A stretch of DNA of 64,000 bases from Microcoleaceae cyanobacterium (GTDB lineage Bacteria; Cyanobacteriota; Cyanobacteriia; Cyanobacteriales; Microcoleaceae): contig JBOFUV010000034.1 of NCBI GenBank assembly GCA_051652765.1, positions 96,001-160,000 on the forward strand. Reading direction: 5' to 3'. Shown here piece by piece: positions 12,491 through 52,017 of this stretch. A program made the translations under genes and the position numbers. The notes beneath the pieces are model-generated. The model made no database searches and was not told the origin of the DNA. It saw nothing but the letters and a program-made list of their open reading frames with translations. Each line of letters opens with the position of its first letter. Positions within the stretch are counted from its first letter, which is position 1.

Positions 12491-12598
12491 TTAGCATTTA
12501 ATCCAGTAAACGTAAGTTTCCTCAGTTCGGTAGGGATAATGCTTGAGCCGAATCAGATCACGCACCTGATCCAACAGCTTTTTCGGGCGTTGTTCCAT
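12491..12598 (-). pseudogene. intI: Integron integrase 5' remnant A (35 aa, N-terminal SAM-like region only)
   Basis: MEQRPKKLLDQVRDLIRLKHYPYRTEETYVYWIKC* matches the IntI N-terminus pattern (LLDQVR..IR.KHYS.RTE..Y..WI); no catalytic domain follows. Confidence 0.85.
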
Positions 12599-12606
12599 TT
12601 GGGGTT

Positions 12607-12839
12607 TATACAGAAAATTGCAAGGTAATCCTCCGAATAAATCGATGCTAGGCAGAACATTGCTGTGTTTCATCGGAGAATATACGGAAAGTTTTGGGAT
12701 AATCCTCAAATTTAGGATGTATACCCAGAAAGTTTCAGTACAATTGCAGTATTAGGGTGGACTATCTGGAAAGTTTCAGGGTAATCATCCCAAAAGCGTT
12801 GGTTATGCAGAAAATTTCAATATTAATAACTAGTTTGCT
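12607..12839 (+). promoter_or_regulatory. attI-like region A: six phased TAnncrGAAAgTTtc boxes plus core TAATAACTAG|TT (crossover G at 12833)
   Basis: Upstream of and divergent from the intI stump; the same core and box spacing recur at 51737-51926 on the minus strand. Confidence 0.7.
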
Positions 12840-12935
12840 GTCTTTAGGTTATCTGTGAGAATGGTACTTTCAGCTTTTTTGTGAGAGTACAATTTTTCAT
12901 AACTGAAGAACAATCACATATAGTTTGAGAGCAAT

Positions 12936-13415
12936 TTAAAGCATATCCTCTATAGACATCTGTCTTTCAATGCTGGGTAACGGTCTAACATCAATATAGT
13001 CTTGGGCAAACTTTTTAAGACCTGCATCTTCGCTATATATACACTTTGCGCCTCTTGCCATTGCTGTAGCAGTAATCATGAAATCAGCTTTCATTTCTGC
13101 TCTTGATATTCCACTCTCATTTTTAAGTTGCTTTTTGTTTCTCCACATCTCTGCAAAGTAAAGAGCAGCTTGTGTGTCAAAAGGTGGAACGATAAATCGG
13201 CGGTGCATTAGTTCACTAAATGCATTAAGCAACCCTGGCTCCAAAGTACACAGAAGTTCTGCAACAACCACTGCCGGAACCATAATATCGATTCCATCTC
13301 TTTCGCAAGTACCGATCAAATATTTAGCTTTATCTATGTTGTCCTCCTGCCCAGGAGTTGCTTGCTTCTTAACACCCCAAATAATTATCTGTGTATCAAA
13401 GCAAACTAGATCCAT
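12936..13415 (-). CDS. PIN domain protein (VapC-like nuclease)
   Basis: CFDTQIIIW, PAVVVAEL, ADFMITATA, IYSEDAGL: acidic PIN tetrad. Confidence 0.85.
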   Translation of the reverse strand: MDLVCFDTQIIIWGVKKQATPGQEDNIDKAKYLIGTCERDGIDIMVPAVVVAELLCTLEPGLLNAFSELMHRRFIVPPFDTQAALYFAEMWRNKKQLKNESGISRAEMKADFMITATAMARGAKCIYSEDAGLKKFAQDYIDVRPLPSIERQMSIEDML

Positions 13416-14216
13416 TTACGCCTCCGACAGTCCATAGCGTATTTCAGAGACAAAAAGATCCACATTTTCTATATTGTCAAATGAATCTCCAATTAAGTTA
13501 GCTAATTCTTCAAAAGCTTCTGATGGCGAAGTTTTCTCATAATCAGAAATGTCGATTACGTGAAAGTTTTCAATTTCAAATGTTTCAGAATTCCATTCCG
13601 CAAGACCACGCAACTCTACTTTTGCGTAAAGCTTTGCACCTGCTTTCTTAGCTATTGCCTTACTTGTACTACAGTAGATGATTTGACTGTCCAAAGTCTT
13701 GAACTGAATTTTAGGTTCTGCCCCACCCACACGAGTTATTTCTCCATGTATGGTTGTCTCCCCTGACAACGGATAAATGTCAGGTATCTGGGTTTCAGGA
13801 GTAAGAACAGCTAATGATTCCAGTCTGCCATTCTGCGTAAAAAACTCAGCATTACATTGATAACGTCGTGTAAAAGCAGACAGTTTCCTCAGAGAATTGA
13901 TGGCACCACTTGGTAGTACGCCAAAATCATTCTCTGCAATTGACTTTGTTATACGACGTGTGGCAGGCAAAGTTAGCTCCAATAAATTTGGGGAAAACTC
14001 TAAACCAATACTTCCTTGTCGAATACTCTTTAAGCCGATTACTATAGTCTCTTTCTTTAACTCTGGGTGGTCACGAATCACCATAGAGGCTATCATATCT
14101 TCAACAGATTCAATGACTTCCGCAATCTCCTTAGACCGAACTTTGCCTGGTGACATACCTTCACCAGTCAGTAATATTTCTACAGTTATATCGTGAGCCA
14201 TAAATGATCTCACCAC
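13416..14216 (-). CDS. Uncharacterised ~260-aa protein coupled to the PIN gene (ATG at 14201 also plausible)
   Basis: Long ORF; its stop codon directly abuts the PIN start codon. Confidence 0.75.
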   Translation of the reverse strand: MVRSFMAHDITVEILLTGEGMSPGKVRSKEIAEVIESVEDMIASMVIRDHPELKKETIVIGLKSIRQGSIGLEFSPNLLELTLPATRRITKSIAENDFGVLPSGAINSLRKLSAFTRRYQCNAEFFTQNGRLESLAVLTPETQIPDIYPLSGETTIHGEITRVGGAEPKIQFKTLDSQIIYCSTSKAIAKKAGAKLYAKVELRGLAEWNSETFEIENFHVIDISDYEKTSPSEAFEELANLIGDSFDNIENVDLFVSEIRYGLSEA

Positions 14217-14328
14217 CTTCAGACATAAGAAGAGTCTATAATTATATCACGCTTGAGAACGAAGATAGTCGCCATTTCGGTTTTTTTCAACTAATTCGTA
14301 CAAGTCATAGTGCTGTGAGTTCCTAGCA

Positions 14329-14414
14329 GCCCAACACTGCGTTGGTGCGGGCGGCACATAGGTTACTGGTGAGTATCAAAAGCTACCTGCCGCCGCACAA
14401 CTTCACCGTTAGTT
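14329..14414 (+). other. attC recombination site (86 bp)
   Basis: R'' GCCCAAC ... R' GTTAGTT; imperfect inverted arms GTTGGTGCGGGCGGCA / TGCCGCCGCACAAC; closely similar to the attC at 45398-45483 read on the minus strand. Confidence 0.8.
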
Positions 14415-14531
14415 TGCCAGCGCAGCAGAGAGTGTTGGCGAGGCTGAACTGCAAGGGTTATGCTACGTTGAAAGTAGTTTTGTCGGGTTCGCGCTGGCTG
14501 GGTGGTGTAGGATGTTAGAGAGGAGGGCAGT

Positions 14532-14759
14532 ATGAACATTCCTATCATTGACGAAGTAGTTGAACAGTTGAAGGTGATGCCACAGCATTTACAATGGCAG
14601 GTACTTGAATTTGTTCGGACGTTGGTAAAAGCGGAAGTGCGAGGTACGCCAGGATCGCAATTGTTGCGCTTTGCAGGTTCAATCCCTATCGACGATCTCC
14701 AGTTAATGCGTGAGGCGATCGAGCAAGACTGTGAACGGTTAGATATTAATGAGTGGTAG
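14532..14759 (+). CDS. Putative antitoxin (DUF2281-like)
   Basis: 75 aa, QVLEFVRTL...GTPGSQLLRFAG; overlaps the start of the downstream PIN gene; GGAGG RBS. Confidence 0.7.
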   Translation: MNIPIIDEVVEQLKVMPQHLQWQVLEFVRTLVKAEVRGTPGSQLLRFAGSIPIDDLQLMREAIEQDCERLDINEW

Positions 14760-15138
14760 GTATTTTCTTGATACCAATATCATCATTGCTCTCTTTGCAG
14801 ATGAAGCGATCGTCAAAAATAATCTTGCTCAAGCCAACGAAGTTTTCATTCCAAGTTTTGTGATTGGCGAGTTGTATTATGGGGCAAGAAAGTCAGGGCG
14901 AGTTCAAGCAAATTTAGCAAGAGTTGATGAGTTGGTTGCTAGCAGCATGATATTGGGGTGTGATGCTGAAACTGCACGGCAATACGGTGAAGTCAAGAAT
15001 GAGTTGAGACTCAAGGGTCGTCCGTTGCCTGAGAATGATGTTTGGATTGCGGCTCTTGTATTACAACATGACTTGATTCTGGTGACACACGATGCTCATT
15101 TTCAGGAGGTGGAGAGTTTACAAACGGTAACATGGTAA
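14749..15138 (+). CDS. vapC: VapC-family PIN toxin
   Basis: LDTNIII, IGELYYGA, PENDVWIAA, VTHDAHF. Confidence 0.9.
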   Translation: MSGRYFLDTNIIIALFADEAIVKNNLAQANEVFIPSFVIGELYYGARKSGRVQANLARVDELVASSMILGCDAETARQYGEVKNELRLKGRPLPENDVWIAALVLQHDLILVTHDAHFQEVESLQTVTW

Positions 15139-15140
15139 GT

Positions 15141-15169
15141 ACTGCCGCTGCTCACTTTAGCCGTTAGCT
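15141..15169 (+). other. Right half of a deleted attC site
   Basis: CTGCCGCTGCTCACTTTAGCCGTTAGCT resembles the 3' arm of attC 14329-14414 (CTGCCGCCGCACAACTTCACCGTTAGTT); no left arm present. Confidence 0.55.
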
Positions 15170-15201
15170 GGCTTCGTTTTTGGCTTAGAGCGTACAGAAA
15201 G

Positions 15202-15330
15202 CTAAAACGATCGCAAAATAGCTGCGATCACTTGCTTCAGGCTCGGTAATTCCTGCTCGATAGCTAACCAAACAATATCGAGGTCAATCTCAAAGTAGTT
15301 GTGAGCCAAAATATTTCGCACGTCTCTCAT
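15202..15330 (-). pseudogene. HepT/DUF86 HEPN toxin with large internal in-frame deletion (42 aa)
   Basis: ATGA overlap with the MNT stop; MRD joined directly to VRNILAHNYFEIDLDIVW (RX4H motif). Confidence 0.8.
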
Positions 15331-15617
15331 AGGGGTATCGCTTCGCTCAAGACGTGATCGCGGATTCTGGGTCGCAGCCCTTTTTCTGTGACGACATCCA
15401 CCGGGCAATTCAGCAGGTCTTGTAGTTCCATCAGCAAACCACCGAGGTCAAACAGGCTACGTTCTGCCTCCATTTCCACCAGAAAATCCACATCACTTTC
15501 TGAGTCGGCTTCGCCCCGTGCCACAGAGCCAAAGACGCGAACGTTGTAGGCACCATATTTTGATGCTGTTGCTAAAATCACGTCCCGTTTTTCCTGCAAC
15601 TGTGCCCCAATGTTCAT
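15327..15617 (-). CDS. Minimal nucleotidyltransferase (MntA-type antitoxin)
   Basis: [22 protein letters not shown]; 96 aa. Confidence 0.92.
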
Positions 15618-15866
15618 AAGCAACTTTCCATTTTGTCTTATTATCCCATCATCCTACTGCGATCGCCCTATCCTTTGACCCAACTGGGTTTGAGAGCGTG
15701 CGATCGCATTTGTCGTCTCGCAGAAAATCGCCTGTATCAAAAACATGAGTATTGCGATTGTAGGTGCGATCGCTCTCACCTACAATCGCAGTGTTTTCAC
15801 CAAAAGTACAATCGCACCTGATTAAAACCACGATCGCAGCCGTCCTAGCCATGATCGCCGTGCTTT

Positions 15867-16781
15867 CTAAGTTGACCGGCTCATCATTCGCCGCAGGACT
15901 GCCAAACTCTGCTGTGTGCTGACTGTATCTGGATGCTGGTTGAAAAGTTGCTGACGCATTGTTAACGCTTGCACCAACAATGGCTCTGCTGCAGTTAATC
16001 GCCCCTGGTTGGCATACAGCACGGCCAAATTCTTGAGGCTGGTGGCCACATCCGGATGCTGCTCGCCCAACAGCGATCGCGCCACGGTCAAACAAGTCTC
16101 TAACCAAGGCTCCGCTTCTGCATAGAGTCCCTGACTTTCATAGAAGCGACCGATTCCGGTAAACGTCCATGGCAAATCACCTTCATCGGGAAGATATAGC
16201 TCCTCCCGCGTTTGCAGTTTCAGCAAGTCAGTGGCGACTTCCTTCAGGTGCGGAATCACTGCCTCCACCGACTGAATCTGTGCCAACGTCGGTGTTTGGG
16301 GAATGTGTTGTGCGACGGCAATCATCGTTGTTGCCACTGCTGTTTTCAGCGTCTGTCGTTCCTCGCTGGCTAGCTTCGCCGCAAAAAACTCCCGCAGCAG
16401 TTGATGCAGTTGATACAGTCCTTGCCCAACTCTAGATAGCAAACTGCGCCCCAGCAGTTGCTCAACCCGGCAATCCTCTAAGTCCTCCTTGTCCCAATCT
16501 GGCAGACATTGTTCCACCAAATTCCAGGGAATCGGCGCTAGAGCAAACAAACTCAACAGCCCACAGAGCCTCTTGGCTTCATCGGGGAATTGCTCATCTT
16601 CCCAAGTTAATTGGAAAGCCGCTGCTACACCCAGTTGAGCCGCCATCTGCTTCGTTTGCACCAATGCCTGAGCCGCCAACTTTTTTGCTTCCAACCGCTC
16701 CAACATTTCCACCAAGTTCAAGTCCTCCCTCCGAGCCAGGTAGCGACCCACCAGTTCCAATCCCAAGGGCAAATAGCCCAA
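15867..16781 (-). pseudogene. C-terminal remnant of an NB-ARC + TPR protein (P-loop missing)
   Basis: Starts at the (W)LGYLPLGLELVG GxP motif; LHQLLREF MHD-like motif; HPDVATSL TPR_12 repeats; no Walker A. Confidence 0.75.
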
Positions 16782-17025
16782 CCATTTCCAAGAACTCTCA
16801 GACTGATTGGCAGCGACTCGACATGGCTGCAGAACACCGAGTCAGATGCAACTTTTGAGAAGTTACCTAACGCGATTTCCAGTAAATCGTCTGTACAGCA
16901 AAAGACCGCAATGATAAACTCCTAGATAAAAAATATAGTCCAACTCCATGCTCAGTATCTTGCACTCCTAGCACCGATCCAGTTGGGCCTTCTTATTTAG
17001 ACCTTAGTCATACATCGTGTTACTT

Positions 17026-17231
17026 ATGATCAACCCATCACAGAGTGCAACCTAATCCGATGCCACGCGCCAATTTCCACCAGGATTTCTATGGGGCACA
17101 GCTACCGCTGCATATTCGTCGGGATCAACGTCTATTTAGCCTCGCATTACGTGCAGGCAACTGAGGCAGATCCAGGTTATGCGTTTGTACCGTTCAATGC
17201 TTCACAACCCAATGCTCAAGCAGATTTCTAA
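17026..17231 (+). pseudogene. GH1 beta-glucosidase remnant
   Basis: FPPGFLWGTATAAY at 17074, followed at once in another frame by FVGINVY (DFxGxNxY-like motif); in-frame stop at 17053. Confidence 0.7.
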
Positions 17232-17469
17232 AGGCTGTTGCTCAATTCTACGTTAGGCAGAATTTCTTACAGAAGTTCTGCTTTTTGTTTCTGGTTGTTA
17301 TCCCTCCAGATTGCAATGGACAATCTGCTCTGGCTCTATTTTGATAGGATTTGCTGGCTTCACAACATTGATTTTTTAGAAAATTTTTGGGGCTTTCCGA
17401 AATTAATTTGTGAGGAAGAGTAGTTTTTAATATCAAACAAAAAACACAAAAATATTAAGAGTAGAATCA

Positions 17470-18009
17470 ATGCATCAGGGAATTGTTATGGGTTTATTTG
17501 ACCATCGCCAACTCTTTCTAAAAGCCTTAAAAGAAGCAGAGTATCATGTCATTATCACTTGTCCTTGGGTTGGGCAATCTGGCTTAGATGAGGAAATGCT
17601 GCTAGAGATGAATAATGCCTTAAGTCGAGGAGTAACCATTGAAATTGGCTGGGGATGGCATCGGGACATTGGCAGAGAGATTATTACTGGCAATAAATCC
17701 TGGAGCGTTCGTCCTGCTTATAATTGGAAATATAACGGGCTCTTTAAACTTCAAGAACTACGCAGAAAGTATCCTCATACTTTTAAGCTAAAACTAATGG
17801 GAACTCATGCTAAATACTGGGTCTGTGATCATACTTTTGCAGTGGTAGGTAGTGCTAATATTCTGAATGTATCCTCTACTTCTGTGGCCCAACCTCATGA
17901 AGAAATCGGAAGCTATGTTACTGATTTTAAAAGCATTCAAACCTTGATTAATTCCTTCAAGTTTGCTGCTGACTTGGCTGCAGAGAGAAATCACTGGGAC
18001 GCTGCATAA
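17470..18009 (+). CDS. Stand-alone phospholipase D-like (HKD) domain protein
   Basis: IITCPWV and THAKYWVCD...VVGSAN. Confidence 0.75.
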   Translation: MHQGIVMGLFDHRQLFLKALKEAEYHVIITCPWVGQSGLDEEMLLEMNNALSRGVTIEIGWGWHRDIGREIITGNKSWSVRPAYNWKYNGLFKLQELRRKYPHTFKLKLMGTHAKYWVCDHTFAVVGSANILNVSSTSVAQPHEEIGSYVTDFKSIQTLINSFKFAADLAAERNHWDAA

Positions 18010-18065
18010 TCGAGTTGAGTCAACACCTTGATCATCCTGATGTCACTGACTGACTCCAATTTCTA

Positions 18066-18095
18066 AAAATAAGGGACACAACATCGTTGTGTCCC
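18066..18095 (-). terminator. Intrinsic terminator downstream of tkt
   Basis: GGGACACAAC-ATC-GTTGTGTCCC hairpin followed by a T-rich tract on the minus strand. Confidence 0.7.
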
Positions 18096-18137
18096 AGCCA
18101 ACTTATTACCAGCCATTTATCAAATGATCAATTGCTG

Positions 18138-20150: not shown

Positions 20151-20384
20151 AGTTATCGTTTCTATAGTTCAGATGGTAATTTGCGAGTGCCACAGCGCAG
20201 CAACCAGAACACTCAGGAGTTTAGCCCTAAAGTCGCGCTCAAGCTTCTTGCCCCCATCATCTCATCTGTTGGGATCGACAAGCAAGGGAGTTAAAACAAT
20301 TTTGCAGGGCAGATATGAAGGCGGAATCAATATGTTAAACTCCTGATTGACCAAGGAAATTGCTGATCATAGAAACATAGAGTC

Positions 20385-20849
20385 ATGGATTCTCAAGCTC
20401 CCAAATTCGAAGTGCCCGAAGAAATACAAGCCCTCCTTTCAGCCGAAAAATTAGAAAAGGTGGTTCGTTCTTTCACCAAGATTGATGGCAACCAAGATGG
20501 CAAAATTGAACTTGAAGAATATCTCGATCATCTTTTGGAAAAAGAGAGAGAGAAACTCGCAAAGCAGTTTAGATACTTGGATGCAAATCAAGACGGTTAT
20601 ATTGAATTTGAAGAGTTTCTTGCTGTTACAGAGCCCCACTATCTGATTCTGAAAAAGTTTCGTAGATTTGATCAGGAACGCAATGGATTCTTGACATTTG
20701 CACAAGCAATTCAGATTGCGGAAGAATTATCTCTTCCCTATGATCATAGTCAAATTGAAAGAGTGCTGCAAGAAATTGATCAAGATCAAGATGGGCAAGT
20801 GACTTACTACGAATACTTGGGCGCAATGATTCACTTTGGGTTCCAATAG
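20385..20849 (+). CDS. EF-hand calcium-binding protein (4 EF-hand-like loops)
   Basis: DGNQDGKIELEE, DANQDGYIEFEE, DQERNGFLTFAQ, DQDQDGQVTYYE. Confidence 0.88.
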   Translation: MDSQAPKFEVPEEIQALLSAEKLEKVVRSFTKIDGNQDGKIELEEYLDHLLEKEREKLAKQFRYLDANQDGYIEFEEFLAVTEPHYLILKKFRRFDQERNGFLTFAQAIQIAEELSLPYDHSQIERVLQEIDQDQDGQVTYYEYLGAMIHFGFQ

Positions 20850-21131: not shown

Positions 21132-21174
21132 CTACGGTAGAAACAGTGTTCTTGTATCACTGTTTCTACCGTAG
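21132..21174. repeat. Perfect 17-bp inverted repeat with 9-nt loop
   Basis: CTACGGTAGAAACAGTG / CACTGTTTCTACCGTAG. Confidence 0.85.
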
Positions 21175-25876: not shown

Positions 25877-27235
25877 ATGAAAATTCAGCAAATATCTGTT
25901 AATGGGCTATTTGGAATTTTTGATCATGTGATTCCATTAAACGTGGATGAGAAAATCACAATTATTCATGGTCCTAATGGCTTTGGAAAAACAGCGATGC
26001 TCAGGATGCTAAATGGCTTCTTCAATTCTCGATACCCAATGTTTCGTAGTATTCCATTTAACAGGTTTCGAGTTGAATTTGATAATGGCAATAGTGTTGA
26101 GGTTGTAAAACTTTCTGACAGCTCAGGTAAAACAAAGAAGAAAGAACGAATAGATATTGAGTTTCACGAAACTGGCTTGGAAAAGAAAATCTATACTCTA
26201 AAGGAAACGAAAAATTCTCCAGATATCGACTTCCCAATTAGTGTTTTGGAGGATATGGTTCCAGGATTAGAACGAGTAGCAATTAAAAGATGGGTTTATC
26301 TTCCAACTGGTGAATCCCTTTCTATAGGAGAGGTGATCGATCGATTTGAAGATGTTCTTCCTTCAAAGGCAAGATTACGAGAAGAACCTGAATGGCTAGA
26401 GAGCCTAAAGCAGGATATTCATGTCCGTCTCATTGAGTCGCAGCGTCTACTGAACTTTGTTCCTAGTCGTTCCTCAAGGGTGTACTCTGGAACACCTTCA
26501 ATGCTACCAACTGTTTCTGCCTATTCTGAGGAGATTGCACAACTTATTCAATCTAAACTTGCTGAATATGGTACTACTTCTCAAGCTTTGGATAGGACAT
26601 TTCCTGCAAGAGTAGTACAACAGCAGCTATCCCCTGATTTGACAGATGAAGAGCTTCGCCGTCAGCTCAATGAGCTTGAAGCAACCCGCTCTCGTCTTAT
26701 AGAAGTAGGTTTATTAGATAAGGATGAAAATTCGGATTTTCAAATCCAGCCACAATCTATAGACGAAAGCACAAAAAATATTTTGTCGGTATATGTTGAG
26801 GATGTAGAAAAGAAGCTTAGTGTTTTTAGTGAAATTGCAAGTAAAATTGATCTTCTGAGAAGAATCGTTAATAGTAAATTTGCTTATTCTTATAAAGAGA
26901 TGAGTTTTAATAAGGAGAAAGGATTTGTCTTTAGAACACTTTACAATCATTCTTCTTTCAATAGAGATACTCTTTCTCCAACAGATTTATCATCCGGTGA
27001 GCAACATGAGTTAGTTCTTCTCTATGAATTACTATTTAAGGTTCAACCTAATTCTCTAGTTTTGATTGATGAACCTGAACTATCGCTTCACGTAGGATGG
27101 CAGGCTCAGTTTTTGAAGGACTTGAAAGAAATCACAGAGCTTGCAGATTTAGATGTTTTGATGGCTACTCACTCTCCAGATATCATTCAAGATCGCTGGG
27201 ATTTGACCGTGGAGCTGAAAGGTTCAGAAAAATGA
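25877..27235 (+). CDS. ABC-type AAA_15/AAA_21 ATPase, PARIS AriA-like
   Basis: HGPNGFGKT, LSSGEQH, LIDEPELSLH, ATHSP; coupled to a DUF4435 gene. Confidence 0.8.
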   Translation: MKIQQISVNGLFGIFDHVIPLNVDEKITIIHGPNGFGKTAMLRMLNGFFNSRYPMFRSIPFNRFRVEFDNGNSVEVVKLSDSSGKTKKKERIDIEFHETGLEKKIYTLKETKNSPDIDFPISVLEDMVPGLERVAIKRWVYLPTGESLSIGEVIDRFEDVLPSKARLREEPEWLESLKQDIHVRLIESQRLLNFVPSRSSRVYSGTPSMLPTVSAYSEEIAQLIQSKLAEYGTTSQALDRTFPARVVQQQLSPDLTDEELRRQLNELEATRSRLIEVGLLDKDENSDFQIQPQSIDESTKNILSVYVEDVEKKLSVFSEIASKIDLLRRIVNSKFAYSYKEMSFNKEKGFVFRTLYNHSSFNRDTLSPTDLSSGEQHELVLLYELLFKVQPNSLVLIDEPELSLHVGWQAQFLKDLKEITELADLDVLMATHSPDIIQDRWDLTVELKGSEK

Positions 27236-28095
27236 GGGAGCACCTTTCAGTTGACCGTGATGCTAACGCAATTCGACTACGACGCAGTACCTTTTCGGGT
27301 ACTTTTCTATTAGTTGAGGGCTGCTCAGATAGAATCTTCTATGAACGCTTTGTTGACAAATTGACGTGTGTATTAGTCAGTATTTCCGGCAAACCATCTA
27401 GTAAACTTCGGGTTATTGAAGTTCTGTGCATCTTGGAAAAATCAGATTTTCAAGGAGTCTTAGCTATTGTTGATGCAGATTTTGATCATCTCGAAGTTTC
27501 TTTACATAGTAGTCCTAACCTGATTCGGACAGATACTCATGACCTTGAAACTATATTGCTCAACTCATCTGCTCTTGAGAAGGTGATTGCTGAGTTCGGC
27601 TCAGAGGAGAAAATCGCCAAGTTTGGTCGAGGTGTTAGAACAGTATTGCTTGAAGCTGGAATGCCGATTGGATACCTTCTTTGGATTTCTCAACTTGACG
27701 AACTAAACCTAACCTTTGACGGCATTACATTTAGTAAGTTTATTAACGATCAAACCCTGCAAATTGATGAATTCAAGCTTATCCAAGAAGTAAAGAATAA
27801 ATCCCAAGCTTTTGTGCTGAAAAACGAAGATTTACAACAACGTTTAATAAAGCAAAAAAGTGACACCCGTGATCCCTGGCAGGTTTGCTGTGGTCACGAT
27901 CTAGTAAAGATATTATCTCTTGGTTTACGTAAGGCAATTGGCTCCGCTAAAGCTTCTGATGTTGAACCGAATAATCTTGAACGCATTTTACGACTTGCTT
28001 ATGAGGAAACGTACTTTTACAAGACACAAATTTACTCGTCTGTTTGCTCATGGGAAAGTAACAATCCCCCTTTTAAGGTTTTGTACAGATTGTAA
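27232..28095 (+). CDS. DUF4435 TOPRIM-like nuclease, PARIS AriB-like
   Basis: ATGA overlap with the ATPase stop; LLVEGCSD, IVDADFD, HDLE, CCGHD. Confidence 0.8.
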   Translation: MREHLSVDRDANAIRLRRSTFSGTFLLVEGCSDRIFYERFVDKLTCVLVSISGKPSSKLRVIEVLCILEKSDFQGVLAIVDADFDHLEVSLHSSPNLIRTDTHDLETILLNSSALEKVIAEFGSEEKIAKFGRGVRTVLLEAGMPIGYLLWISQLDELNLTFDGITFSKFINDQTLQIDEFKLIQEVKNKSQAFVLKNEDLQQRLIKQKSDTRDPWQVCCGHDLVKILSLGLRKAIGSAKASDVEPNNLERILRLAYEETYFYKTQIYSSVCSWESNNPPFKVLYRL

Positions 28096-36841: not shown

Positions 36842-36846
36842 TATGA

Positions 36847-43098: not shown

Positions 43099-43600
43099 TG
43101 TGGTCTCCTTTTCTCGAAATGCAATTGAAACTCAGGACAGCAAGCTAACGAAAACAATGCTTTGCTAGCAGTAAAAACCAGAGTAGCAGTCTTTCAGGTC
43201 TCATTACTACTGACTTTTGTTAAGTTGTGTAAACTTTGCCGATGCAAATCCGTTGACCTGTCCTAAAATCAACCAGGCTACTACCTTAATCTAAAACAGC
43301 CATGTTGAGTAATGGTGTTAAAGAAACGTTAAAGTAAACTGACAAATCTTTAATCAATTCATAGATTTGGGCAAAGATTTTCATAAAATCACCCAGTACT
43401 CTCTCTATTTTTAGCAATTCATTCTGTAGCTAAACCTATAGATTTCTGCTCCGAGGATCTCTAATTCTTGTTAACTAATTCTTGCTAAGTGACTAGGTAT
43501 AATTAGGGAGTCGAACCCTGTAATGCTACACTGCCCCCTAAACCAGGAAGGAGCGGTCTCCAGTCGCTTTTTTGTCGAGGGGATGAAGATCTTAACTACA

Positions 43601-43780
43601 TCATAAAACATCAGCGATTGCCTCCTGAGCAAACGTCTCCAATTTACCGTTTTCGATGTCTTGCTCGATCTGCTTGTCCCAGCGTTCGTAGTCTAAATCA
43701 AGAAACCACAGCCTCAATTTTTCAAACTCATTCGATGGCAAGGAAAGGATTGCCGCTTCAATTTGCTCAACGTTTGACAT
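43601..43780 (-). pseudogene. Small antitoxin-like protein (59 aa), apparently 3'-truncated; last cassette of array B
   Basis: MSNVEQIEAAILSLPSNEFEKLRLWFLDLDYERWDKQIEQDIENGKLETFAQEAIADVL*; below the ORF-track size cutoff; GAGG RBS. Confidence 0.6.
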
Positions 43781-43930
43781 AGCTGCTTCTACCTCTTTGC
43801 TCTTGAGAAAATTATAGCCTTCCCGAAAAGGCGGTGTACTTTTGTATCTGAAACTGCCGAGCTTTGCTCTCGAAAAACTCTTGAACCCTGCCAGTAAAGC
43901 GTGCGGTTACACCCCCACTCAGGATCTGCG

Positions 43931-44013
43931 GCATAACGTTCCTGGTCAGCGGCGGCTAATAACTTTGCATCCCCACTGAGATCTCAATACCGTCCGCACC
44001 AGGGTTGTTAGCC
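43931..44013 (-). other. attC site (83 bp)
   Basis: Minus strand GGCTAAC...GTTATGC; arms CCTGGTGCGGACGG / CCGCCGCTGACCAGG; the upstream gene's TAA lies inside R''. Confidence 0.88.
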
Positions 44014-45253
44014 CGCCGCTTCAACACCTGCATTGAAACGATATTCAGCCAAAAGCCTCCGCAAATAGCGAAGTGCTAATAAGCACAGAGGAAAAACATA
44101 ATCATCAGGTGGCGTAAAGTTCCCATGCACAATTTTGTTTCTCCCGGTAATTATTTCACCACCACTAGACACATCAATAGGTATAATTTCTTGCTGCTCA
44201 AGCCACTGGAGTTTACGAGTCAGCCCATTAAAATCTCCTGGCTGCTTCTTTGCTCTAATTAACATCATGTTCACAATTGCTTCAATAGAAGGATACATAA
44301 CCCGTAGTGAATCTTGGCACTTGCCATCTTGGTAAAGCTTTATACTCGTTTCAATAGATTGTCGGTTTGCGTCATCAATTAACTCGTGTTTATTCACAAC
44401 CTCCAATACTTCGTCAAGCTCTGATGATGAACCTTTATAGGTATCACCGATTTCCTCTGATTCAATTAGTGATTTGGCAGCATCGCGCAGAGGATTATCT
44501 TCGGACAATATTCGTTCAACTACAACCTTACCTAGAGGCGTAAGCCTAATTTTCTCTGGATCATCTTCGTTCCGCTCTTTAAGAACACCTAGACGAAACA
44601 AAATGTCTTGCTGAGGCGGCATCAATTGTGGAATATTTTGACCACTAGGTTGTAGGTTAAACTCTTCTCTCAGTAAATCTAGATTTATGTGGCGGAAATC
44701 ATACCTGCTAGTGCTAAACAGAGAATCAACACCTAATAAAAAAGTAACAGCCTGTACAGGAGATAGCTCAAGAAACAGCCTTCCAAGTCCCGTAACATTC
44801 CAATGAGAATCTTGATAATCCCATGAAATTAACCAACGATCCTTAGCAAAGGTATATGCTTATTGTCTGTTCGTCACCGTTACGCTCCCATACCTCAACA
44901 AGTGCCGCTATTAAGTTTCCCTCAAAGTTGCGAGCCTGATAAATTGGTCTGTCTTCATCGGAGAGCCTAATATCAATACCTTCCGTGACAAGCTTGAAAA
45001 CAGTACTTTCATCTACTATTCCTATCTTTCTGAGATATACACCACATACTCGAACATACTCATCAAATAGCCCTTCATTGAACCATTCGAGCAAGGTGTA
45101 ATTATCACTATCAACTTCGCGTAACTTCTGAGCAGCATACTCTCGTAAGCGCTGAGTTAAAGCAGGTGCAACTGAACTATGCTCAATAATTGTGCCACCA
45201 CTCACTTGAATGTCAGCAATGATTTGCTTAATTGCGTCAATAAAACTCAGCAT
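44008..45253 (-). pseudogene. ~414-codon gene with C-terminal HEPN (DUF4145-like) domain, split by one frameshift near 44845-44862
   Basis: The frame of ORF 44008-44625 stays open up to 44859 and overlaps the end of ORF 44843-45253; RNKIVH = RX4H. Confidence 0.75.
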
Positions 45254-45397
45254 TGATAAAAATTTTAGTCTTAAATTCAGAATCTACCTGCTATTCTAAT
45301 CGATCGCCCTGTTTACCATCTTATAAGTGACTTACGGCAACTTGGCATTGAGCACAAACAGATAACCTCGCGCTCATGTCCTCATCAACAATTTGAG

Positions 45398-45483
45398 GGC
45401 TAACGATTGAGTTGAGCCGCCGCAGATAACCTTTGGTTCCAACAGATAACCTCTCGGCGGTCGGCTCCAACGACTTGTTATAC
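45398..45483 (-). other. attC site (86 bp)
   Basis: Minus strand GTATAAC...GTTAGCC; arms GTTGGAGCCGACCGC / GCGGCGGCTCAAC with bulged bases; 7 bp after a stop codon. Confidence 0.9.
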
Positions 45484-45490
45484 CGCCGTG

Positions 45491-45832
45491 TTAATCTCCA
45501 CTAATTTCCACTAACTTTTCACCAGAACGTAGTAGCTCTAGTGCTTCTGGTAAAACCGAATTCAAAATCTCTCGTAGCCGAGCATTTGACGTATTTCCGC
45601 AAGTCAACCAAATGATTTGCGGGGGTGCTCCCAATCGATCGACTAAATCCACGAAATCACTGTCTTTGGTCATGAAAATAACTCCTTGAGCTTGTGCAGC
45701 CTCAAAGATTTCCGGATCTTCGGCATCTCGCAACCCAAGATCACGTAAAGCTAGTGCTGTCACCCCAAATGTATCTGTAATCCAAGTTGCGATTGCGGGT
45801 GACAAGTGTGCATCAATCCAAATCGTTGTCAT
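45491..45832 (-). CDS. DUF5615 PIN-like toxin (VapC45 type)
   Basis: IWIDAHLSP, DPEIF, MTKDSDF, WLTCGNTSN. Confidence 0.88.
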   Translation of the reverse strand: MTTIWIDAHLSPAIATWITDTFGVTALALRDLGLRDAEDPEIFEAAQAQGVIFMTKDSDFVDLVDRLGAPPQIIWLTCGNTSNARLREILNSVLPEALELLRSGEKLVEISGD

Positions 45833-46053
45833 GCAACTAAAACAGGATGATTGAGTTTACGTGAAGCGTAGACAAGTGCCGCTCTCAAATCATCCATTTC
45901 TAGATCGGGTAGTTCCTCTAAAATCTCTTCGGAACTTAGCCCTGCTGCGAACAAATCCAAAACATCAGACACTCGAATCCTCATACCACGAATACAGGGG
46001 CGACCACCACACTGTCTGGGATTTACTGTAATTCGTTCAAGTAGCTTTGACAT
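45829..46053 (-). CDS. DUF433 antitoxin
   Basis: ITVNPRQCGGRPCIRGMRIRVSDVL; ATGA overlap with DUF5615. Confidence 0.92.
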   Translation of the reverse strand: MSKLLERITVNPRQCGGRPCIRGMRIRVSDVLDLFAAGLSSEEILEELPDLEMDDLRAALVYASRKLNHPVLVA

Positions 46054-46080
46054 TTGAAGCAACCTCCATAAGATTAGCGT

Positions 46081-47133
46081 CTATCGAAAAGCACGTTCGT
46101 TCATCTCCTCGAAAAATAGCTCCTCGCTTTGAGTTGCCATTCGTAATGCTATGCGGTCTTGTAGAATTCTTGAATTAAAGTTTCTACGAACCTCTTCGTC
46201 AACACGATTGAGCAAAAATGGTATTTCGTGTCCAGCATGATTCATCTGACAGTCAGCCGTCATGATGCGAAGCATATTCTCTAGATGATCTTCATGTACT
46301 TCAAAACCAAACACTTTGTTTCTTGGCTTGAAAATACCCCTTAGAATGCGAGTAGCGTCGCCGTTCAGAAAGGAGGATAATGTTCCTCTAGAACTCTCGC
46401 CCTGATTTCTGTTAGGAACATTGCTATTTGACAGGTGATCGTGAAGCGTTTCTACGATGAAGAGTTCTCCTGTTCTCAAGGCACGGGCAAAGGTTGAAAA
46501 TACTACATTTGCCTTGATGTTTTTCATGACCCCAATGCATTGCTTACCACTGGAAAATAGGCTTTCATAAAGATCCACACCTTCCTGGGTAGCTACGAGC
46601 CACTCATACACCAGCGTCCCATCAAAAAATATGTAAGGTTCCTCAAGCTCTAAGCCGTGTCTGACCTCAAAGTATCTGAGATAAGCGGTTGAAGAAATAC
46701 CAAAGAGAGCCTGTTCTTGTCGAGCGATGAAATCATTGGTATCTCTAGAATCACCAAGATAGGCTCTACTAGACCAATAATGTAGTGAATCCTGTAGAGG
46801 GCGGCGGTGAGAGATACTCCCAATTCCTACGCACAAGGCTTGTCCTGATGAGTACATTTGCAAAGGAAGCGCAGGGGTGCCATCAACGGAAGCAACTTGC
46901 CCTTGCTCTAATTCCGGTGCATTACTAAACAACCCAAACTCAATCTGACGTAGCCTCGGTCTACCTCCCGACAGCGAACTTGATGACTCCATTGCTTCTC
47001 TTGCTTCGCGAGTGATTTGCCTTGCTTGCTCACTATCCAGCATTTCGACGACATCATCAGCTACGCCTCCAAAAGTTGTAGCAAATTCGTCGCGAGTGAT
47101 GCGTCTTGAGCGTCTGACTAACTCACTAAACAT
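46081..47133 (-). CDS. NurA-like nuclease (RNase H fold)
   Basis: ASVDGT, FFDGTL, IGVMKN, EIPFLL..VD: spacing typical of NurA motifs. Confidence 0.65.
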   Translation of the reverse strand: MFSELVRRSRRITRDEFATTFGGVADDVVEMLDSEQARQITREAREAMESSSSLSGGRPRLRQIEFGLFSNAPELEQGQVASVDGTPALPLQMYSSGQALCVGIGSISHRRPLQDSLHYWSSRAYLGDSRDTNDFIARQEQALFGISSTAYLRYFEVRHGLELEEPYIFFDGTLVYEWLVATQEGVDLYESLFSSGKQCIGVMKNIKANVVFSTFARALRTGELFIVETLHDHLSNSNVPNRNQGESSRGTLSSFLNGDATRILRGIFKPRNKVFGFEVHEDHLENMLRIMTADCQMNHAGHEIPFLLNRVDEEVRRNFNSRILQDRIALRMATQSEELFFEEMNERAFR

Positions 47134-47138
47134 AGTCT

Positions 47139-47644
47139 CTAGTTTCCCATTTTTTCAAATACATTAAGAACACAGGTATCCGATCTCATTCTACGATCGC
47201 GCTTTGCCATATTGTTTTTTGTCGCACTACCAGGCTCCTGTTGCCGACCGCGAGAAACATAGGTCGTGTCAAGCCAACTTAAGCCACAAGCGATCGCCAT
47301 CGAAGAAACATCTGACGGAACATCATGATTTGGGTTTTCGGGTCTAAGCCCACTCCACTTAGGTAAAAAGATGCATAGCCTCCCGCTAGGGTTCAAGGAT
47401 TCAGCTAATGCGGCTATTACTTCTTTCATTATAGAAAGATAGTTATCATAACTCTTAGCAGATGCTAGCTGATCATCAAATAAGTGACTAGACTGTCCGT
47501 AGTACGACGGATCGATAAAGATCCAATCAGCTTTAATTGGCAGAGGATTTCGCGCATCGTGCTTTTTAATAAAGCGACGACGGGGGTACAAATCAAACAA
47601 CTTGATTTTTAACTGAAAGTTAGAGTCTTTCTGCCAGCGATCGC
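47139..47644 (-). pseudogene. 5'-truncated amino-(N4/N6) methyltransferase
   Basis: FDLYP, HDAR.PLP, DWIFIDPSYY (DPPY-like), L.PSGRL; SAM-binding motif I absent; frame open up to the HIP1 site at 47637-47644. Confidence 0.65.
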
Positions 47645-47728
47645 TCTCCTAAATGTTTCTGAGTCAAGTTTAGCATTCACTCCTAACCGATAACCTCGCT
47701 GGCACTGTCCTAGCCCAAAAACGAAGCT

Positions 47729-47815
47729 AGCTAACGATTGAGTTCACCCACTACTGATAGCTTTGGGACTAATCCAGTAATGCTATTGCAGGTCGGGTGC
47801 AGTGATTGGTTAGCT
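47729..47815 (-). other. attC site (87 bp)
   Basis: Minus strand AGCTAAC...GTTAGCT; shares the 3' end AACTCAATCGTTAG with attC 45398-45483. Confidence 0.8.
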
Positions 47816-47940
47816 CGACTTGGGCGAGCTGACTGTCTCTTGACTCAGCAAAACGACCAGCGCAGATGATGCAAACCCTCTCTCAACATAGTCAGTCGCC
47901 CTTCGGTTTAACTCCACAGGGAAGCTGTGGTTCGCTGGCA

Positions 47941-48046
47941 AGATAACGACCAAGATAAGCAGATTTTGAGAGCGGCGATTGCTTTTGGGAGGAAACTAAA
48001 ACTTGCAAATCCGCTCTCAAAATTCCGCTGCAACGACTTGTTATAC
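47941..48046 (-). other. attC site (106 bp)
   Basis: Minus strand GTATAAC...GTTATCT; inner stem TTTTGAGAGCGG/CCGCTCTCAAAA; shares GTATAACAAGTCGTTG with attC 45398-45483; 4 bp after a stop codon. Confidence 0.85.
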
Positions 48047-48050
48047 GGCT

Positions 48051-49925
48051 TTACAGAGGAATTAGCTTACTCTCATCATTAAACTCAGCAAATATGTATT
48101 CATGAGCGCTTTCTGGAACGGTGTTATCAGACACAATAATTTGCAAACGATTCTGATACTCCTGACCAACTCGGATTATATAACTATAAATAGCTTCAAT
48201 ACGTTCACGATCCAATCCCTCATAGCCGATATTGCCAGATAGACCATCAATTAACAAGATATTGGGAAGTTGTAAGTCAAAATGAATGCAGGTTAGTTGG
48301 TGTGCTAAGGCATGGGCAGTATTAACCATCACCTTGAGACCTTGAGACTCCAATTCATCAAAACGTCTTCCCTCAAAGCGTGGTAAGTACGTTTTGCGAT
48401 CAATAATTGATGGTCCCGGATCTGAAAAAGATGGTACTCGAATTTCCCGTAAAATCGCTTGATAAGTGTTGTCCAGAAAAATCAGATAGCTCTCAAAATC
48501 TGAAACTCGGCTATTAGCTAGATCAATAGCCACATCTAACTCTTCAAGACGAGATTCAAGTTGTTCAATAGTGCTGATAGCCTGATCTTGCCGATTATAC
48601 AGTCCGAGATATTCTTCTAGACGCTGCTTCTGCTCCTGTAATTGGGTACGATGTTGTTCCACCTGTGCTATCTGCTCTGCTTGTTCGGAGACGTAGCGGT
48701 GAGTCCGGTGGTTTATCTCGGAGGATAAAGCTTGGCGTTGTGCATCCAATCGAGCGATTTCCTGTTCGATGCCAGTAGTTGCAGTTCGATGTGCATCAAC
48801 TAGTTCAAAAGTTTCAGTGATTTGTTGTTCTAAGCGATCTTGTTCCTTGATCAAATCATCTTGGGTTATTTGCGGTTCTGGTTGTTGCAAGCACAGATAA
48901 CATATTTCTGATTCAGTTCGGGATGGTTGAATAGAAGAGCCACAGCGTGGGCAAGAAAGGAAATCGAAATCAAGCAAATAGTTTCCTGCCACAATCGACT
49001 TGGTAAGTCTGGCACTTTGAGTCTGTAGTTGGGCAATGAGACTCTGTTTCTGTTCAAGGCTATATTGCTCATACTGAAGATTCTGATGAAATTCATCTAA
49101 TTGTCGCTGCACTACTAAGAGGCTGCTTCGTAACTCGTCCGTATTTGTATAACTTCTAATTTCCTGTCCTAGATTTTCCGAATCTGAATGTGCAGTTTCT
49201 AGTTCTCTAGTCACATTATTAAGATTATGGACAATAGCTGCTCGATTCTCAAAAGGTGTTCCAGTAAGAAATTCTTCAATTGTTTTAGTGTAATTCTGCA
49301 AACGCCGAATTTCACTGACTGTTTCACGGCGTTTCATCTGTAGCTGAGCTATTTCAACATCATATTTGCCATAAATAACTTCAAAGACGTACTTACGCTT
49401 GTTGTTTTTGTGAGGATTGGTATGTTCAAAAACGCTACTATCAATTTCATCTTGACGGAGATGGCAATACATCATGTAATCATTGATAGATAAAGGTGAT
49501 GTATCACTGTCATCTTGAGTTGGCGCTGTAGGAACTCTCAAAGTTGGCAGGTTGAGTTTTTCCAGCAACCACGTTCCGTAGGTCTCTTCATCGGACTTAC
49601 CACGCAAAGCTGGTAAACGTTTCGCCTCATTCTCACCAGCAATAGAAACCATTGCATCACTTGTCGTAACGAAAGGTCTGATAATCTCATATGCATTGTC
49701 GCCAATGAGAATCTCTCCAGCAAGATTGGTGATGTTCTCACGAGCTTCTCTTGAAAAATCTTTGAGCACTGAACCCAGCAACCCACGAAAGCACTTAATT
49801 AGGGTTGTCTTTCCAGTTGTGATCGAGCCAGTAATAACGTTTAATCCAGGTGCTAGAGAAAATTCACGCTCAATGCCCAACAAGTCGATTTTATTAATGT
49901 GGATTCTCATAACTTTTGGCCCCAA
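48051..49925 (-). CDS. SMC/Rad50-like ABC ATPase (Lamassu LmuB / ABC-3C)
   Basis: GSITTGKT Walker A, coiled coils, CPRC...CYLC hook, ESQG signature, LLIDG Walker B. Confidence 0.85.
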   Translation of the reverse strand: MGPKVMRIHINKIDLLGIEREFSLAPGLNVITGSITTGKTTLIKCFRGLLGSVLKDFSREARENITNLAGEILIGDNAYEIIRPFVTTSDAMVSIAGENEAKRLPALRGKSDEETYGTWLLEKLNLPTLRVPTAPTQDDSDTSPLSINDYMMYCHLRQDEIDSSVFEHTNPHKNNKRKYVFEVIYGKYDVEIAQLQMKRRETVSEIRRLQNYTKTIEEFLTGTPFENRAAIVHNLNNVTRELETAHSDSENLGQEIRSYTNTDELRSSLLVVQRQLDEFHQNLQYEQYSLEQKQSLIAQLQTQSARLTKSIVAGNYLLDFDFLSCPRCGSSIQPSRTESEICYLCLQQPEPQITQDDLIKEQDRLEQQITETFELVDAHRTATTGIEQEIARLDAQRQALSSEINHRTHRYVSEQAEQIAQVEQHRTQLQEQKQRLEEYLGLYNRQDQAISTIEQLESRLEELDVAIDLANSRVSDFESYLIFLDNTYQAILREIRVPSFSDPGPSIIDRKTYLPRFEGRRFDELESQGLKVMVNTAHALAHQLTCIHFDLQLPNILLIDGLSGNIGYEGLDRERIEAIYSYIIRVGQEYQNRLQIIVSDNTVPESAHEYIFAEFNDESKLIPL

Positions 49926-50425
49926 GAAGCACTAGTAACCTCAGGAAAATGCTGGTAAATGAAGTCCTTAAGCTTACTACCAGTAAGATTAAAATTCTGT
50001 TTCAATAGTTTGATACGCACGTTGGTTTCTGACCAGCTTTGTTCTTTCGACAGGGCTTTGGCAATCTGACTACCACGCTCTGTAGTGCGATAGCTCAGAC
50101 CTCTTTGATTCGGAACCGTTTCGACTAAACCTTTACCAATAAGTCTGCCAAGTATAGCGTAGTATGCGGGATCCCAAGGACCGTATCGATAACGAATCAT
50201 ACGCCCTTCAATATTTTGTTGCTCCTCAGCAGCTACTTCCATAACTTGATTCGATGAGCGAATGGCTAGAGCACGTTGCATAAAGCTAGGATAACGTAGC
50301 AGAAAATCAAGTTTGGCTAACTTAGTTCTGCCTTCTAGAGATTTAGTCGATGTAGTAAACGCATTAATAAGCAGCAGGATGCGTGCTTCGCTTTCGATGG
50401 AAGGTTGAAATAGTTCCTTACGCAA
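49907..50425 (-). CDS. ABC-three-component middle component (LmuC-like, wHTH)
   Basis: EGRTKLAKLDFLLRYP, MIRYRYGPWD; overlaps both neighbours. Confidence 0.75.
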   Translation of the reverse strand: MRKELFQPSIESEARILLLINAFTTSTKSLEGRTKLAKLDFLLRYPSFMQRALAIRSSNQVMEVAAEEQQNIEGRMIRYRYGPWDPAYYAILGRLIGKGLVETVPNQRGLSYRTTERGSQIAKALSKEQSWSETNVRIKLLKQNFNLTGSKLKDFIYQHFPEVTSASWGQKL

Positions 50426-51569
50426 TTTTCACCCCCCAATCGATGCGACATTCATCAGAAATCCCGCAGACTGCACCAAGTAGCAGATAGGGATCTTGCT
50501 TATATACTCGATGAGGATCGACCGATTCTTTTTTTTGGGTTAGTTCATTAATTACAGCTCGCCAGATAATCTTGGCCGGTTTCTCTGACTCATCATGCTC
50601 TTCCACAATTGAATTTGTGAGTGTTTGAATTCGGATCTGCACATCTACAAATTTTTCTTCTTCCATGAAGAAGCCTGATGATAAAATTTCGGCTTCACGG
50701 ATAGAAGCATTTGCTCGTAGCTCTTTGGCATTTTTAATAATGCGTTCAGTAGCTCCGCCTGCTATGAGTTTCTTTTCTAGCTTAGTTGGGGTAGGTGCAT
50801 TGAGGTCAGTAATTCGCAACAGCAAGGGATAATCACCACTTATAAGGGAGCCAATGATATCAGTGATATTGTTGGCAGTAAGGCGTTTTGCATCTATCCT
50901 GGCTTTGGTTTCATCTTCAAGCTCTTCTACTTTTGCAATATAGTAGTATAAAAGATTATCCAAGCGATCGCAGGACATTGCTCGAAGAATTTCATCAGTA
51001 AGCTTTTCTTCGAGAGACTTAATTTCACGAATTGATGTGCTTGCTGAGACTTCCCCCATTAGGTGAATATTATGTGATGTAACGTGCGCTCTGGGAGGCT
51101 GGTTAGGATGAACAGTAACAGCTTCAAGAAAAGTGTTGCACTCAGAGTCTTCAATCTCAAGTTTTTTAGATATCTTCTGTACAAGCTCGTCTGACATACC
51201 GCGCTTAGAGTGAGTTAAGGCATTGAGATCATCCTTGGCAGATATTGCACCTTCGATAAAGAGGCTGTATTTAGCTACTAAAGAGGATGTTTCAGTAAAA
51301 GCCCGGTATAAACTTTTCAACCCGTCCATAGCAGCAGTCAATGTCCATTGACCCAGATCTGCATTCCGGGTTTTGACTTGAATAAAGTGCCAGTAATCAT
51401 CATATTCAACAACAATATCTTCAAAGTGCTCCATGATGACAGAGCGTACTTTTTCTTTGCGCGCACATGCTAGGCAGAAAGGCAAAGCAAGTTGTGCCTG
51501 ATAGCGAAACCGCTTCAGTGTATCGGTACCTGTATCATCGGGCGGTGTTTGATTGAGAGGATTTTTCAT
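50418..51569 (-). CDS. DUF4297/Cap4-type dsDNA endonuclease effector with ABC-3C C-terminal domain (LmuA-like)
   Basis: DTG.DT..RFRYQ, EHFEDIVV, FIQVKT (PD-(D/E)xK-like), C-terminal G...SDECRIDW. Confidence 0.8.
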   Translation of the reverse strand: MKNPLNQTPPDDTGTDTLKRFRYQAQLALPFCLACARKEKVRSVIMEHFEDIVVEYDDYWHFIQVKTRNADLGQWTLTAAMDGLKSLYRAFTETSSLVAKYSLFIEGAISAKDDLNALTHSKRGMSDELVQKISKKLEIEDSECNTFLEAVTVHPNQPPRAHVTSHNIHLMGEVSASTSIREIKSLEEKLTDEILRAMSCDRLDNLLYYYIAKVEELEDETKARIDAKRLTANNITDIIGSLISGDYPLLLRITDLNAPTPTKLEKKLIAGGATERIIKNAKELRANASIREAEILSSGFFMEEEKFVDVQIRIQTLTNSIVEEHDESEKPAKIIWRAVINELTQKKESVDPHRVYKQDPYLLLGAVCGISDECRIDWGVKIA

Positions 51570-51736
51570 TGTGTGCTGCTATGGAAGCTTCGGACAAAGC
51601 TATATACTTCATTGATGGAATATCTATACCCATAATGTCAAGGAACAAATATCTGTACCACCATTAGCTTTCAATTTTTGCCTTTAAGCAGCGGAAATAG
51701 AAGCCTTACAGTAACTCCTTTATCAATGGGTGAGCC

Positions 51737-51926
51737 GTATAACTAGTTATTAGGTTGAAACCTTTAGTCTAATCACCCTATTTGAGTACGTTAGGCTGAA
51801 ATTCGCAGTCTAATCCACCCAAAATAGTAGATTAGATAGAAACTTTCCGTATATTTCCGCAGGCCATCCAGATTTTTTCGGCTTAGCATCGATTTATGAA
51901 GCATTTAGACGGAAACTTTCCGTTTA
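51737..51926 (-). promoter_or_regulatory. attI-like region B: five phased boxes plus core TAATAACTAG|TTATAC (crossover G at 51743)
   Basis: GTTATACGGCT at the core is the exact 11-bp complement of the R'' end of attC 47941-48046; layout matches region A. Confidence 0.78.
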
Positions 51927-51933
51927 TCCCGCA

Positions 51934-52017
51934 ATGGAACAACGCCCCAAAAAGCCGTTGGAGCAGGTGCGCGATGTGATTCGGCTCAAACACTATGATG
52001 GAAGAAGCTATTTCTAG
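51934..52017 (+). pseudogene. intI: Integron integrase 5' remnant B (27 aa, homology ends after ~21 aa)
   Basis: MEQRPKKPLEQVRDVIRLKHY then DGRSYF*; paralogous to 12491-12598. Confidence 0.82.

Follow-up and report, generated by a model that had tools for sequence, protein, structure and literature searches.

Dispersed attI platforms with truncated integrase genes in a Microcoleaceae cyanobacterium

The textbook integron has one attI site and one first position. In the sedentary chromosomal integron, the closest described system, intI and attI are divergent, attC sites form strand-specific hairpins, and single cassettes are integrated at G|TT, with toxin-antitoxin (TA) pairs, restriction-modification, GNAT, and Lamassu genes as typical cargo. 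We found these same traits in a 64,000-nucleotide stretch of DNA (hereafter the window; positions 96,001 to 160,000 of contig JBOFUV010000034.1, or C34) from a Microcoleaceae cyanobacterium (GCA_051652765.1; labeled G000). The window holds two integron modules, module 1 at 12491-15168 and module 2 at 43600-52315, each with a 5' stump of the integrase gene. Unlike in a sedentary chromosomal integron, there is no functional intI at any of the sites, and 22 attI sites with short arrays stand in place of one attI with one long array. The feature is real and of the integron kind, and its organization is unusual.

We compared this organization with the accessible parts of PMC4889954, PMC9024848, PMC2426708, PMC8618304, 10.1101/2025.06.18.660453, and 10.1101/2022.09.11.507474, to which all statements about these sources refer. 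Frequent intI pseudogenes, duplicated integrons, attC clusters that have no integron-integrase (CALINs), a trans-acting IntI as an idea, and defense cassettes are all known already. Like CALINs and single attC sites lacking integron-integrases (SALINs) (PMC4889954; 10.1101/2022.09.11.507474), the arrays described here are attC clusters without a nearby intact integrase; however, 42 of 83 attC sites chain to an attI on their own contig, and an intI 5' stump is chained to 17 of the 22 attI sites. Mobilization of CALINs in trans is possible according to a Xanthomonas preprint (10.1101/2025.06.18.660453). In the truncated-intI integrons of that study, too, stops or deletions inactivate intI while attI and cassettes persist, but the Xanthomonas platform occupies a single conserved locus and its array is usually identical in strains that share a lesion, whereas here one lesion occurs at 12 loci with 12 first cassettes in a single genome. 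In the literature searched (most subscription papers lie outside it), we found neither multi-attI satellite families in cyanobacteria nor a chromosome whose roughly twenty attI platforms carry distinct cargo and a single inherited intI lesion; many CALINs may be recorded for genomes of this kind in the genome tables of PMC4889954 and PMC9024848.

Attachment sites and integrase stumps across the genome

The G000 assembly (5.04 Mb in 158 contigs, 99.97% complete, 46% GC) contains the octamer GCGATCGC 3231 times, which we take to be the cyanobacterial HIP1 signature. attC sites were sought with a profile built on the genome's own sites, not with the IntegronFinder model; its seeds came from a loose pattern scan of the genome, which gave 89 candidates, of which 17 were retained, a stricter scan of the window having missed true sites. 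In a reversed-genome control, the attC and attI profiles gave 0 matches each.

Profile searches revealed 22 attI sites on 20 contigs, and tblastn identified 18 intI 5' stumps, a copy number that the initial annotation of the window had underestimated. A stump accompanied attI at 17 of these sites and was missing from five, and one stump lacked an attI. The attC profile matched 91 times at E <=0.05 and 83 times below 1e-3; the sites show single-strand orientation, a bottom-strand hairpin, and a core/inverse-core match, and several are partial or partly deleted. Homology among the copies stops at the attI core, beyond which the cassettes differ. attI diverges from the start of intI, the crossover is at G|TT, and most attI cores are intact. 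A full-length intI with a catalytic domain beside an attI was not found in the genome. The platform unit is thus a spacer with attI plus variable upstream DNA that usually ends within the 5' part of intI. Spacers form two families, A and B, mixed by recombination, and one copy is a mosaic. The spacer tree covers the copies with spacers longer than 170 bp; the trees gave no resolution inside the A family or among junctions.

The 22 first cassettes are diverse, no two having 150 bp or more in common. Among the 17 that are closed by an attC, core and inverse core match at a mean of 9.1 of 11 positions versus 7.1 after shuffling, and none of 10000 shuffles reached the observed value. Because this match exceeds that of the shuffles, the 17 cassettes appear to have entered as circles at attI; judged by their junctions, first cassettes are shown to have been joined there by IntI-type recombination. 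Five first cassettes are defense- or TA-like, eight carry genes for metabolic or stress enzymes, and nine have no family or open reading frame (ORF), so that defense cargo is local and loading with defense genes is not supported as a rule. A cargo scan of 118 cassette ORFs, taken from closed cassettes and open first cassettes only, contained many TA, restriction-modification, GNAT, or oxidoreductase genes. Defense genes in integron cassettes have been published before, as the accessible parts of two preprints report (10.1101/2024.07.02.601686; 10.1101/2024.07.02.601719). In the first cassette of contig C22 (L095:7883-11691), a type IIG restriction-modification gene is split by an inserted DUF2281 and PIN pair, and a cassette gene of C156 (L241:2756-3622) encodes a penicillin-binding transpeptidase domain.

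Copying and loading of the platforms

Twelve of the 18 stumps break at nt 63 of intI into one common 67-bp junction (mean identity, 86%), followed by an array of 22-bp repeats of highly variable length; the first cassette is a different one at each of these twelve platforms. Outside the repeats, the flanks show no relationship or have nested pieces in common, of ∼270 bp at most. Across 21 copies, the left ends form a continuous range from 81 to 942 bp from the crossover (boundaries hand-set from earlier alignments). Constant ends with terminal repeats, by which a transposon-borne integron is recognized, were not seen among the platforms, whose left ends are ragged and nested, and no transposase family was found among the 55 window ORFs scanned. 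The shared-break junction was not found in 60 relatives, and the bare repeat array occurred only once, in the congener G002. The start of contig C68 is a near-twin of C45 (56/56 bases identical), with a different first cassette, and the repeat flank of C101 matches that of C45 at 557/614 bases. The 22-bp arrays, which contain GATC, also occur without a platform at five loci (contigs C49, C63, C109, C134, and C145), and partial junctions at C61, C71, C88, and C144 all begin at one short dispersed repeat. The idea that the repeat element was the constant 3' flank of an ancestral intI is unsupported, the element being absent behind the congener's full-length gene.

We lean, somewhat beyond an even chance, toward the reading that the two window modules are members of a genome-wide family of satellite integron platforms that were loaded in trans in the past. 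In the copying of the platforms, the attI end would have stayed fixed and the left end would have varied raggedly, and most copies would never have carried a working integrase, above all the twelve with one inherited break, junction, and repeats. Each attI would then have been loaded or reloaded by IntI in trans, from a master locus since lost or unassembled. Should the break predate the copying of the platforms, for which the ragged left ends speak, the loading can only have happened in trans. The distributed integron put forward in the initial annotation fares well on the 22 attI platforms and on the single break found in 12 of 18 stumps, at sites with 12 different first cassettes, but not on its integrase, since the assembly contains no full-length IntI.

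Can the copying itself be ascribed to IntI? An attC x attG circle (10.1101/2022.09.11.507474) would move stump and attI together. One case in G002 fits: the C63 stump of that genome (L081:2614-2898) is cut exactly at GTT within intI and joined to attC, and its junction identifies it as a product of IntI recombination inside its own gene. The left ends of the G000 copies, in contrast, bear no such signature, breakpoints overall are not enriched, and the route is not shown to drive dispersal. Only one of 12 distinct breakpoints (7 in G000, 5 in G002) is unambiguously of the attG type and one more is compatible, which is about the chance level because 16 such sites lie within 360 nt; attG-type ends of the repeat arrays, judged by eye, are inconsistent. 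General illegitimate recombination is as plausible a copying route as the IntI-driven one, because shuffling of gene order between congeners reaches down to blocks of 1-3 genes.

The comparison sets were two congeners (G001 and G002), 30 relatives for intI, 60 relatives for the junction, a 251-genome phylum sample, and the 80 best metagenome loci. G002 holds 10 platform matches, at unrelated loci, and G001 one 50-bp attI remnant. Neither window site is syntenic in the congeners. As for orthologous filled and empty sites, the window flanks and three other platforms share only 1-3 genes' synteny with the congeners, and the filled/empty pair of G002 C127 and G000 C124 has diverged too far for junction placement. 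One cassette (89% identical) stands first at a family-A site in G000 and at a family-B site, at another locus, in G002. Cassettes have thus moved between species, and the higher identity of shared cassettes than of housekeeping genes (89-93% versus ∼65-80%) also speaks for the satellite reading. Three further genomes of the 30 relatives have an intact intI above the family cut-off. In the phylum sample, the IntI N-terminus was matched in 36 of 251 genomes, G000 having the most matches (8) and two others 5 each. Five multi-hit genomes were checked: G254 and G063, both closed, have one intact intI each, together with a distant stump and attI copy (98% and 94% identical, respectively) with a different first cassette, and the other three have none above the cut-off. 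Genome G216 has 5 dispersed spacer matches. Dispersed stump and attI copies recur in other cyanobacteria.

Other arrangements were seen among the genomes compared. G063 carries a second platform family (L207-L208) with a long spacer and at least two near-identical copies, both with an internally broken intI. In G022 (L060:3373-7373), four successive attC sites, each followed by a near-identical leader, lie behind a stump, which suggests repeated cassette duplication behind it. In G016 (L053-L056; C1:4440000-4520000), intI-attI units stand in tandem, each attI with cassettes of its own, and the same segment recurs after an attC at six places; of the intI genes in this array, two are intact and one is broken, several stumps are present as well, and in the two units read, a prfA-like 3' fragment (by eye) precedes intI.

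Several results weigh against the satellite reading. No intact cognate intI was found in the assembly, the two congeners, or the 80 best metagenome loci (best, 78% at the amino acid level): tblastn with three IntI proteins found none past codon 117 in the assembly, and TIGR02249 gave no match above its cut-off in the G000 genome. A full-length intI, which the initial annotation proposed to seek in the genome and its relatives, was present in just one of the two congeners (G002, single copy), preceded by the same spacer as the platforms and with an internal stop (nonsense codon). With no integrase in the assembly and a nonsense codon in the one full-length gene of the congeners, the system looks dormant; as assembled, an incoming IntI could reload it. 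A sigma-70 consensus scan of both window spacers gave no promoter match. In G254, the remainder of the split intI is found 25 kb away from the stump, next to the start of an insertion sequence (IS) transposase (by eye), and for that reason this satellite may have been loaded in cis. The five G002 stumps examined all break differently, as independent decay predicts. Finally, the shared junction is present on both spacer families and one copy is a mosaic, which means that integrons already loaded could have received the junction; the shared-break copies are not resolved as a clade in the spacer tree, and the closest spacer pair (97%) has different breaks.

These last points bear on an alternative that we consider unlikely though of real weight, namely, that complete intI-attI units multiplied, were loaded in cis, and afterward lost intI, in six cases through separate deletions and in twelve through a deletion allele that spread by recombination between the 300-bp homologous copies. 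Recombination between copies is evident, so loading in cis followed by decay is the main rival, and the deletion allele could have replaced intact genes after loading. The A family has radiated, with members keeping up to 117 codons, breaks differ among the copies of G002, intact, broken, and truncated intI genes coexist in the G016 tandem array, and intI pseudogenes via intragenomic duplication have been reported (PMC2426708). However, this would require some 12 replacements, each with only one-sided homology; no repeat flank follows the 3' end of the congener's full-length intI; and the left ends of the shared-break family, nested and ragged, resemble the intI breaks in their raggedness, so that one copying process explains both more simply.

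It is improbable that the distributed integron is currently active, with an intact intI missing from the assembly. The smallest contig is 1614 bp, so a repeat-flanked intI of ∼1 kb could have been filtered out, and a contig of <1.6 kb could hide an integrase. Contig C68 starts within a family-B spacer, the one spacer cut by a contig end, and the intactness of most attI cores is also in favor. The gap at C68, however, most likely hides another stump, because its start is identical to that of shared-break C45 and the C101 flank matches C45; decay is also visible in the split type IIG gene at C22 and in the partial or partly deleted attC sites. Five sequencing runs contained 0.05-0.07 of the words, and comparison of four of the five with the congener's intI gave short pieces only, except for one contig carrying the junction of module 1. 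That contig, of 239 bp (run X2; depth, 3.2), has the exact truncation junction of module 1, which argues against an assembly artifact.

We give very little credence to import of preloaded islands from relatives, by transformation and illegitimate recombination and with no attI ever loaded in this lineage, for although platforms (∼85% identical) and shared cassettes (89-93% between G000 and G002) are more alike between congeners than housekeeping genes (∼65-80%) and the islands are ragged at both ends, the junction is in none of the 60 relatives, the bare array is in G002 alone, and the problem of loading in trans would merely shift to the donors.

The two modules of the window

In the window, the stumps, the 13-mer (12638, + strand, in module 1; 51884, − strand, in module 2), the attI core TAATAACTAGTT (12824, + strand; 51741, − strand), and the attC-bounded cassettes lie where the initial annotation had placed them, and both integrases are cut in the N-terminal region, as it claimed. 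Its picture of one module present twice, as a duplicated unit, is not borne out: the modules are just 77% identical over 161 bp and have separate spacer families (A versus B) and separate breaks (nt 100 versus nt 63). From ATG to crossover, the distance is 235 bp in module 1 and 191 bp in module 2. The attI regions, described as intact, are so in module 2 (core/inverse-core match, 11/11), while the junction of module 1 is slightly decayed (6/11). The five full attC sites of the window have E values of 4e-21 to 6e-9, and their bottom-strand folds have z values of −1.7 to −4.9. With four attC sites in module 2, one full and one half site in module 1, and no nearby intact intI, both modules would be classed as CALINs, for which at least two attC sites are required.

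The module 2 stump (51934-52017, + strand) is a 27-amino-acid ORF that translates to the IntI N-terminus. Its homology stops at nt 63 (position 51996), up to which 55/63 bases are identical to the full-length congener intI; later codons are read-through. Joined to nt 63 are the 67-bp junction (51997-52063, + strand) and, beyond it, the imperfect 22-bp tandem repeats (52077-52315, + strand) that form the variable left end of the shared-break family. On the other side, the family-B spacer and attI (51741-51933, − strand; crossover at 51743) are about one repeat unit shorter than those of module 1, and the spacer is of the same family as that at the congener's full-length intI.

The first cassette of module 2 (47948-51743, − strand) carries a Lamassu-type operon of LmuA (a Cap4 nuclease; 50418-51569), LmuC (49907-50425), and LmuB (48051-49925), which PADLOC matched at 3e-26, 3e-10, and 2e-95, respectively. 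With an LmuA effector, LmuC, and an SMC-like LmuB in one operon, it is a predicted Lamassu defense system. The earlier claim of intact defense-like first cassettes therefore holds for this complete operon and not for module 1, whose first cassette is TA-like. The attC ending the Lamassu cassette (47941-48046, − strand) has an E value of 6.3e-9 and a fold z of −4.9. It is followed by a 212-bp cassette without an ORF (47736-47947, − strand; attC at 47729-47815), with 18 full or partial matches in the genome (84-98% conserved), at first and internal positions. This cassette, possibly a promoter or small-RNA cassette, heads the array at two other attI sites, the only one to be first at two of the 22.

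Cassette 3 (45405-47735, − strand; attC at 45398-45483) contains a partial methylase, a 350-amino-acid ORF, and a DUF433 and DUF5615 pair; its core and inverse core disagree, and it probably represents fused cassettes. Cassette 4 (43938-45404, − strand; attC at 43931-44013) has two ORFs without family (44843-45253 and 44008-44625). The array ends in a truncated cassette, a cassette-like leader (43600-43937, − strand; left limit approximate) with a short ORF and no closing attC.

The stump of module 1 (12491-12598, − strand) is a 35-amino-acid ORF, likewise translating to the IntI N-terminus. Homology stops at nt 100 (position 12499), up to which 91/100 bases are identical to the congener intI, and later codons are again read-through. 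The family-A spacer and attI (12599-12835, + strand), with imperfect ∼40-bp repeats and a G|TT crossover at 12833/12834, share 93-96% identity with 8 other A-type copies and 84% with that of C97. Cassette 1 (12833-14407, + strand) contains two genes on the opposite strand, one for a 266-amino-acid protein (13416-14216) with no Pfam or PADLOC match and one for a PIN protein (12936-13415). By its gene content it is TA-like and is not a recognized defense system. Its attC (14329-14414, + strand) has an E value of 8.5e-14 and a bottom-strand fold z of −2.8. Cassette 2 (14408-15168, + strand) has a small upstream ORF (by eye), a PIN gene (14749-15138), and a terminal half attC (15142-15168), a weak match at E 0.016.

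Beyond module 1, a PLD-domain gene (17240-18009) lies behind a cassette-like GTTAGGC leader, with no attC detected, and is possibly a decayed distal cassette of that module. A third attI on the contig (L096:7774-13977), 32 kb past module 2 and without stump or spacer, is followed by 6.2 kb of opposite-strand restriction-modification and TA genes. The window also contains a defense-like AAA_15 ATPase and DUF4435 pair between two ABC oligopeptide-transporter ATPase genes (25877-28095), with lower GC and no attC, and a 1753-amino-acid glycosyltransferase fusion (FkbM, GT2, and GT41) in a low-GC stretch at 9-5270.

Meaning for cyanobacterial integrons

The published pseudogene screen used C-terminal and PF00589 profiles with >50% coverage and attI sites of classes 1-3 only (PMC4889954; PMC9024848, as far as these are accessible), and the platforms would therefore score as integrase-free CALINs. 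Standard tools are blind to these attI sites and 5' stumps, and the published figure of 95% of CALINs without a nearby intI pseudogene may in cyanobacteria partly reflect a limit of detection. The alignment of the 22 copies defines a cyanobacterial attI, in which natural deletions to ∼80 bp keep a proper first-cassette junction; this is directly testable. Twenty-two first positions would let a cell keep many proximal cassettes at once, without a resident recombinase per site.

A bolder proposal, which we hold to be doubtful, is that cyanobacteria run a distributed integron whose IntI also mobilizes its own landing pad, through the attC x attG circle of stump and attI. If it is true, attC x attG excision inside or beyond intI would seed further capture sites across the chromosome, every one served by one transient or mobile integrase, and many cyanobacterial CALINs would be live attI satellites, not debris.

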